From assembly GCF_024223415.1 (NCBI RefSeq), contig NZ_CP100500.1: a stretch of 64,000 bases of DNA; one strand, 5' to 3'. The DNA is from Escherichia coli (lineage in GTDB: Bacteria > Pseudomonadota > Gammaproteobacteria > Enterobacterales > Enterobacteriaceae). Under the pieces are notes generated by a model that saw nothing but the letters and a program-made list of their open reading frames with translations, was not told where the DNA came from and did not search any database. Positions 1,872-36,060 of the stretch are shown in pieces (within the stretch, counting starts at the first letter, position 1; each line of letters opens with the position of its first letter). Position numbers and translations under genes: made by a program.

Positions 1872-4762
<2,891 letters not shown>

Positions 4763-25815: not shown

Positions 25816-25908
25816 GGTGAGGTGGCCGAGAGGCTGAAGGCGCTCCCCTGCTAAGGGAGTATGCGGTCAAAAGCTGCATCCGGGGTTCGAATCCCCGCCT
25901 CACCGCCA
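25816..25908 (+). tRNA. serV: tRNA-Ser (anticodon GCU)
   Basis: 93-nt cloverleaf with long variable arm; acceptor GGTGAGG/CCTCACC; anticodon loop ctGCTaa; genomic CCA. Confidence 0.95.
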
Positions 25909-25911
25909 TTT

Positions 25912-25988
25912 GCATCCGTAGCTCAGCTGGATAGAGTACTCGGCTACGAACCGAGCGGTCGGAGGTTCGAATCCTCCCGGATGCACCA
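25912..25988 (+). tRNA. argV: tRNA-Arg (anticodon ACG), copy 1
   Basis: 77 nt gcatccgtagctcagctggatagagtactcggctACGaaccgag...ggatgcacca. Confidence 0.95.
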
Positions 25989-26123
25989 TATTCTCCGTAA
26001 CCTTCAGCGATGAAGGTATGGAAGAGGTGGCGGTACTAACCGCAGGCACCAGGGAGGATAACGTTGCTTTAGCAACGGCCCGAAGGGCGAGCCGCAAGGC
26101 GAGTAATCCTCCCGGATGCACCA
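25989..26123 (+). repeat. structured 135-nt inter-tRNA element ending in a 19-nt tRNA-Arg 3-prime remnant
   Basis: Several short hairpins (ccttcagcgatgaagg, cgttgctttagcaacg); terminal aatcctcccggatgcacca at 26105-26123 matches the tRNA-Arg T-arm/acceptor 3-prime end; near-identical copy at 26404-26536. Confidence 0.8.
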
Positions 26124-26187
26124 TCTCTTACTTGATACAGCTTTAGTAGCGGTATCAAAAAATCTGCAGTAAAGTAAGTTTCCCGAT

Positions 26188-26264
26188 GCATCCGTAGCTC
26201 AGCTGGATAGAGTACTCGGCTACGAACCGAGCGGTCGGAGGTTCGAATCCTCCCGGATGCACCA
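26188..26264 (+). tRNA. tRNA-Arg (anticodon ACG), copy 2
   Basis: 77 nt, identical to copy 1. Confidence 0.95.
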
Positions 26265-26326
26265 TCTCTTACTTGATATGGCTTTAGTAGCGATATCAAT
26301 ATCAGCAGTAAAATAAATTTCCCAAT

Positions 26327-26403
26327 GCATCCGTAGCTCAGCTGGATAGAGTACTCGGCTACGAACCGAGCGGTCGGAGGTTCGAATCCTCCCGGATGCA
26401 CCA
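26327..26403 (+). tRNA. tRNA-Arg (anticodon ACG), copy 3
   Basis: 77 nt, identical to copy 1; only 62-nt spacer from copy 2. Confidence 0.95.
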
Positions 26404-26536
26404 TATTCTCCGAAATCTTCAGCAATGAAGATATCGAAGAGGTAGCGGAATTAACCGCAGGCACCAGGAAGGATAACGTTGCTTTAGCAACGGCCCGAAG
26501 AGCGAACGCCAGCGAGTCATCCTCCCGGATGCACCA
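26404..26536 (+). repeat. second copy of the structured inter-tRNA element with tRNA-Arg 3-prime remnant (26518-26536)
   Basis: about 90 percent identical by eye to 25989-26123; ends catcctcccggatgcacca; no intact tRNA follows. Confidence 0.8.
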
Positions 26537-27720: not shown

Positions 27721-29304
<1,584 letters not shown>

Positions 29305-29312
29305 CAGAAAAG

Positions 29313-29385
29313 AAAAAGGCCACTCGTGAGTGGCCAAAATTTCATCTCTGAATTCAGGGATGATGATAACAAATGCGCGTCTTTC
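29313..29385 (-). ncRNA. micA: MicA (SraD) small RNA
   Basis: Reverse complement reads gaaagacgcgcatttgttatcatcatccctgaattcagagatgaaattttggccactcacgagtggccttttt, with terminator hairpin ggccactcacgagtggcc plus U-run. Confidence 0.95.
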
Positions 29386-29453
29386 ATATACTCAGACTCG
29401 CCTGGGAAGAAAGAGTTCAGAAAATTTTTAAAAAAATTACCGGAGGTGGCTAA

Positions 29454-29969
29454 ATGCCGTTGTTAGATAGCTTCACAGTCGATCATACCCGGATGGAAGC
29501 GCCTGCAGTTCGGGTGGCGAAAACAATGAACACCCCGCATGGCGACGCAATCACCGTGTTCGATCTGCGCTTCTGCGTGCCGAACAAAGAAGTGATGCCA
29601 GAAAGAGGGATCCATACCCTGGAGCACCTGTTTGCTGGTTTTATGCGTAACCATCTTAACGGTAATGGTGTAGAGATTATCGATATCTCGCCAATGGGCT
29701 GCCGCACCGGTTTTTATATGAGTCTGATTGGTACGCCAGATGAGCAGCGTGTTGCTGATGCCTGGAAAGCGGCAATGGAAGACGTGCTGAAAGTGCAGGA
29801 TCAGAATCAGATCCCGGAACTGAACGTCTACCAGTGTGGCACTTACCAGATGCACTCGTTGCAGGAAGCACAGGATATTGCGCGTAGCATTCTGGAACGT
29901 GACGTGCGCATCAACAGCAACGAAGAACTGGCGCTGCCGAAAGAGAAGTTGCAGGAACTGCACATTTAG
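29454..29969 (+). CDS. luxS: S-ribosylhomocysteine lyase LuxS
   Basis: 171 aa; HTLEH metal-binding motif. Confidence 0.96.
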
Positions 29970-30000: not shown

Positions 30001-30024
30001 AAGCCAGTTCAAATGAACTGGCTT
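30001..30024 (-). terminator. intrinsic terminator of emrRAB (possibly bidirectional with luxS)
   Basis: aagccagttc-aaat-gaactggctt, 10-bp perfect stem; on the minus strand it is followed by TTTTTcAATT. Confidence 0.75.

Positions 30025-35978: not shown

Positions 35979-36060
<82 letters not shown>

Follow-up and report, generated by a model that had tools for sequence, protein, structure and literature searches.

micA, a Sigma-E-Dependent Small RNA Gene on the Strand Opposite to gshA and luxS in an Escherichia coli Genome

The spacer between gshA and luxS in the Escherichia coli contig NZ_CP100500.1 (assembly GCF_024223415.1), of which a stretch of 64,000 nt (hereafter the window) was analysed, carries on its minus strand the small RNA gene micA. 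The feature is micA itself and not just a similar element; the match lies far beyond chance. It is almost certainly the sigma-E-dependent, Hfq-binding and mainly trans-acting micA, located on the opposite strand in the gshA–luxS spacer, the RNA of which can also form duplexes with luxS leaders. MicA is an RNA of about 70 nt, induced by envelope stress or in stationary phase (2015 review of MicA; Udekwu & Wagner 2007, PMC1851643). The gene, its control by sigma-E, its targeting of ompA and its antisense relation to the luxS leaders are already known, having been published between 2001 and 2010 and reviewed in 2015.

Identity and Position of micA

A scan against all Rfam families (cmscan), which was repeated on the full window, gave a MicA match (RF00078) on the minus strand at 29314–29385, with 83.9 bits against a gathering score of 41 and an E-value of 2.4e-12; positions 1–75 of the 75 in the model were covered, that is to say, the match is full length. 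The gene is placed between gshA and luxS and on the strand opposite to both, which is the placement that marks the MicA family. In the annotation of K-12 MG1655, micA (b4442) is a 73-nt ncRNA separated from the gshA stop by 8 nt, and the luxS ATG comes 69 positions beyond its first base. Positions 29305–29470 of the window are 100% identical, base for base, to K-12 MG1655. Since this identity takes in the spacer (29305–29453, 149 bp between two plus-strand ORFs) and b4442 is annotated there, micA corresponds to 29313–29385 of the window (Table 1). The differences from K-12 are four single-base ones only, all of them within gshA and upstream of the spacer. Almost every complete E. coli genome carries the 361-bp region (5422 of 5426, at an identity of at least 95%). 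In summary, the feature shares with MicA (SraD; Rfam RF00078; K-12 b4442) its length, structure, promoter motif, seed, terminator and gshA/luxS neighbours, and it differs nowhere from the K-12 gene.

The original prediction, made from the letters alone, had placed MicA here, convergent with gshA and divergent from luxS, and the Rfam match, the ORFs and the K-12 annotation agree with it. Its start coordinate of 29313 is exactly the K-12 equivalent, and the alignment to the known MicA sequence, on which the prediction had staked itself, contains no mismatch. The 9 bp to the gshA stop and 69 bp to the luxS start that it gave are right as offsets (29313 − 29304 and 29454 − 29385); the intervening bases number 8 between the gshA stop and the MicA 3′ end, and 68 between the MicA +1 and the luxS start.

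In another record, NZ_CP033096.1 (L001, locus 4105–4255), the spacer is 100% identical to that of the window, yet the RefSeq/PGAP annotation is without a micA feature, whereas the K-12 record has one. The missing micA is an annotation gap and no difference in biology.

Table 1. Coordinates of micA, its parts and its neighbours in the window
Feature	Position	Strand	Basis and remarks
gshA CDS, glutamate-cysteine ligase, 518 aa	27748–29304	+	ORF and E. coli genome annotation; convergent with micA
Published distal luxS promoter P1: −10-like TATGAT 29109–29114, start G 29122	29109–29122	+	Udekwu 2010 and sequence reading
MicA Rho-independent terminator, 7-bp GGCCACU stem (29335–29318) and U tail	29308–29335	−	Terminator scan, fold
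micA, 73-nt MicA/SraD small RNA	29313–29385	−	Rfam, K-12 b4442, identity to K-12
MicA internal stem-loop, nt 23–44	29342–29363	−	Rfam consensus structure, MFE fold
MicA single-stranded seed, nt 8–24, against the ompA translation initiation region (−21 to −6)	29362–29378	−	RNAduplex
Proximal luxS mRNA 5′ end (R3)	29371–29372	+	Derived from the published 14–15 nt overlap
micA sigma-E-type promoter: −10 TCTGA 29392–29396, −35 GAACTC 29413–29418, A/T tract 29421–29436	29392–29436	−	Sequence, conservation
luxS Shine-Dalgarno GGAGG	29442–29446	+	Sequence; 5 nt from the A/T tract of the micA promoter
luxS CDS, S-ribosylhomocysteine lyase, 171 aa	29454–29969	+	ORF and annotation; divergent from micA

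Promoter of micA

A sigma-E promoter was taken to consist of a GGAACTT-like −35 element and a TCTGA- or TCAAA-like −10 element directly upstream of +1, and this is what precedes micA: a T7A5T4 tract is followed by TGAACTC (−34 to −28), a 16-nt spacer and TCTGA (−11 to −7). Among the matches listed in the comparison described below (111 distinct loci), the −35 and −10 elements alike show a conservation of about 90% or higher. It has been reported that the transcription of micA is strictly sigma-E-dependent (Udekwu & Wagner 2007, PMC1851643). The promoter sits within the 5′ UTR of luxS, and the GGAGG in front of the luxS ATG is conserved in other species.

Structure, Terminator and Seed of MicA

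In the RNA, nt 51–68 form the GGCCACU stem followed by UUUUUCUUUU, and an A/U-rich linker precedes the stem; in the window, the stem at 29335–29318 is followed by TTTTTCTTTT. In the terminator scan, this hairpin appears for the minus strand and not for the plus strand, in line with the assignment of the terminator to MicA in the original prediction. As judged from sequence, the U-tailed terminator together with the A/U-rich linker are the features of an Hfq-binding module. The minimum free energy (MFE) fold contains a free 5′ region, the internal hairpin and the terminator, with a z-score of −3.1, and the first 22 nt from the 5′ end form no pairs in the consensus of the Rfam family. In the MFE fold the extreme 5′ GAAAGA is also paired with the U tail, which was set aside as a folding artefact, as the Rfam consensus has the 5′ end single-stranded. 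The pairs of the internal stem-loop are retained in 94–97 of 97 sequences, with compensatory changes at two of them; among the loci listed, such changes are found in just 3 of the 13 helix pairs of MicA, and they are few because the RNA is so highly conserved.

When the seed was tested against the K-12 ompA leader (RNAduplex), it paired at −21 to −6, right over the ribosome-binding site, with 16 paired bases and a total of −26.5 kcal/mol; 8 of 500 shuffled controls were equally good. In trans, the activation of sigma-E leads to MicA, the 5′ seed of which pairs, with the help of Hfq, with ompA and other envelope-related mRNAs. This pairing blocks translation and promotes decay, so that the envelope load drops under envelope stress, the function being taken from the literature and the sequence features being those seen here.

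RybB is the other major sigma-E-dependent envelope-stress small RNA of enterobacteria. Like MicA, it has a sigma-E promoter, uses a 5′ seed, depends on Hfq and represses omp mRNAs, but the sequence and the locus of RybB are unrelated to those of MicA, and we know of no antisense relation between RybB and the leader of a neighbouring gene.

Comparison across Enterobacterales

The comparison set was obtained by an exact-pattern scan for MicA nt 3–26 in one-genome-per-species contigs, which gave at least 120 loci from Escherichia, Citrobacter, Enterobacter, Klebsiella, Pantoea, Erwinia, Serratia, Yersinia, Rahnella, Dickeya, Pectobacterium, Edwardsiella, Hafnia, Tatumella and others. As the loci were chosen by an exact match to nt 3–26, the conservation of the seed within the set is by construction, and the set consists of lineages in which the seed has not diverged. 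Among the matches listed, luxS lies on the opposite strand beyond the micA +1 in all 116 loci with enough flank, and gshA is convergent with micA in all 113 loci with enough flank. The offset from the micA +1 to the luxS ATG has a median of 73 (IQR 71–80, range 68–180) in the loci listed, and that from the gshA stop to the micA +1 has a median of 81 (IQR 79–82, range 74–171). The compact gshA–micA–luxS layout thus appears, from these sequences, to be the ancestral norm of Enterobacterales and no peculiarity of the window. The region had earlier been called an "unusually compact three-gene overlap zone": the close spacing is real, but "unusually" does not hold, as the spacing is the norm across the Enterobacterales loci listed.

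Among the matches listed, the distance from the micA +1 to luxS is 123–180 nt in 11 of 116 species, against the usual 70 or so (loci L008, L014, L025, L035, L037, L045, L051, L059, L084, L088 and L094; those named include Kluyvera, Pseudocitrobacter, Pluralibacter, Superficieibacter and an Enterobacter sp.). The extra 50–110 nt lie between the A/T tract of the micA promoter and the luxS Shine-Dalgarno sequence, and contain an imperfect hairpin which ends beside the latter. Such an insert could be an added element of the luxS leader or a small inserted repeat.

The same loci bear on the alternative that the region codes for a small protein, either a 46-aa ORF on the plus strand (29326–29466) or a 48-aa ORF on the minus strand (29241–29387), both of which appear in the mechanical ORF list. 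A stop-free plus-strand frame was found, however, in 58 of 110 distinct species loci listed, the open frame differs among these, and the indels in the loops and linker of MicA break the frame. The ATG of the minus-strand ORF begins 2 nt upstream of the MicA +1, and therefore the start of this ORF is not on the MicA RNA. There being no conserved frame among the loci listed, the small-ORF reading of the spacer was rejected, and we consider a coding function hardly conceivable.

luxS Transcripts Antisense to MicA

Three luxS mRNA species have been detected in E. coli (Udekwu 2010, PMC2956633), and the experimental data on luxS given in this section are from that study unless another source is named. 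The transcript from the distal promoter P1 has a sigma-S-dependent start at a G at −332 from the ATG, which maps to G29122 inside gshA, and a C and then TATGAT are found at 29108–29114. The P2 5′ ends, which map to AU-rich stretches of the MicA complement, have the appearance of processed ends. In the short form, R3, the overlap with the 5′ end of MicA amounts to 14–15 nt, for which De Lay & Gottesman (2009) are cited in the study. Transcripts running antisense to MicA were likewise recorded in a separate RNA-seq study. A sigma-70 promoter for a proximal luxS start (ATGATA-18-TATACT, 29363–29392) was considered and rejected, as it is one hit against 0.8 expected by chance and its predicted start misses the published 5′ end at about 29372.

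Because the two genes are on opposite strands, any luxS RNA with its start upstream of 29385 runs antisense to MicA, as had been predicted; the geometry and the 2010 study both bear this out, and the remark in the original prediction that the arrangement is known is correct, since it was published in 2010. The term "overlap zone" is apt for the transcripts and the promoters, but not for the gene bodies, as no annotated genes overlap. Every luxS transcript from 29385 or upstream, among them the sigma-S P1 transcript (29122) and the RNA with the proximal 5′ end (about 29372), is perfectly complementary to MicA over the whole or a part of its length. In the mechanism proposed for the cis action, MicA and the long luxS leaders form a long duplex, the cutting of which by RNase III gives the short luxS mRNA. 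This cis processing rests on one experimental study with supporting RNA-seq, the geometry being what was computed here. When MicA was overexpressed, R3 went up and P1/P2 went down; R3 is missing in the rnc mutant, that is to say, luxS processing depends on both MicA and RNase III. The long 5′ UTR of the P1 transcript, which fully overlaps the opposite transcript, and the processing of the duplex by RNase III resemble cis-antisense or "excludon" units, but the principal and well-supported role of MicA is in trans, and LuxS protein was unchanged in the published test.

The main cis effect may instead be transcriptional interference, in which a polymerase from the micA promoter or a bound sigma-E holoenzyme blocks the plus-strand polymerases coming from gshA or luxS P1. 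The micA promoter lies inside the luxS 5′ UTR and the units run head-on, gshA and luxS are without a canonical plus-strand terminator between them, and the 2015 review raised steric or transcriptional interference as a possibility. However, the shift in luxS isoforms was also obtained when a plasmid provided MicA in trans, which, together with the dependence of the short form on rnc, favours an RNA–RNA mechanism over interference, and we consider interference as the main effect unlikely.

Alternatively, MicA may be purely trans-acting and its overlap with the luxS leaders a by-product of conserved synteny, without regulatory consequence for LuxS or AI-2. In the published test, LuxS protein did not change detectably on overexpression of MicA, and in the 2015 review the influence on luxS is still described as "unclear". 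There is no clear synonymous constraint at P1 within gshA: in a noisy profile of third-codon-position entropy over the last 150 gshA codons of 49 genomes, the shallow dip near 29107–29119 is within the noise of other dips. The 50–110-nt insertions in 11 of the 116 species listed point likewise to a flexible spacer length. On the other hand, the levels of the luxS isoforms depend on MicA and RNase III, the arrangement is kept without exception in the 116 species loci listed, and luxS-upstream deletions in Salmonella lead to MicA-linked biofilm phenotypes (2015 review). A neutral overlap thus remains a reasonable explanation, which we hold to be possible rather than probable. The reading of MicA as mainly trans-acting, with duplexes on the luxS leaders in addition, is the one retained here.

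Read-Through from gshA to luxS

In the 8 nt after the MicA terminator stem, there are 6–7 T on the MicA strand against 0–4 T on the gshA/luxS strand in the roughly 117 species listed. As the U tract of the hairpin is on the MicA strand only, it does not provide a canonical intrinsic terminator for gshA before luxS, and no canonical plus-strand intrinsic terminator was found between the gshA stop and luxS by the terminator scan or by the T-tract check in these species. That is, for want of a T tract on the luxS strand, plus-strand transcription can pass the MicA hairpin.

A gating of gshA-to-luxS read-through by MicA may be put forward as a speculative idea. Read-through from gshA to luxS would be the default, and MicA driven by sigma-E would separate or silence the luxS part through cleavage of the duplex by RNase III, polymerase collision, or both, which would couple envelope stress to the balance of glutathione synthesis against the activated-methyl-cycle/AI-2 pathway. 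We regard this full scheme as quite improbable.

Other Features of the Window

Further features of the window were recorded. The tRNA array upstream of yqaB (25816–26403) consists of tRNA-Ser(GCU) and only three tRNA-Arg(ACG), whereas the K-12-like strain CP53 has four; across E. coli genomes, the array holds a variable number of tRNA-Arg copies (1–4 in the hits), and the exact arrangement of the window was found in 8 of 5425 genomes at an identity of at least 99%. Orphan 3′ ends of tRNA-Arg without a tRNA body are present at 26105–26123 and 26518–26536 (AATCCTCCCGGATGCACCA; the second copy has C for the first A), and, lying inside the repeat units of the array, they resemble what unequal recombination among the tRNA copies would leave behind. 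Between the convergent genes luxS and emrB, a perfect 10-bp hairpin (AAGCCAGTTC/GAACTGGCTT) is located at 30001–30024; it is listed by the scan on both strands, and the T tail after the hairpin (TTTTTCAATTA) is on the emrB strand only. Finally, the minus strand at 35983–36060 matches naRNA4/CssrE (RF02564), a family of nucleoid-associated RNAs derived from REP elements, with 76.4 bits against a gathering score of 59.5.

Significance

The practical value of the result lies in annotation, as PGAP misses micA in an identical region of a non-K-12 strain. For the study of luxS itself, deletions or fusions at its 5′ end can disturb micA together with its promoter, which is a known confounder of "luxS" phenotypes (2015 review).
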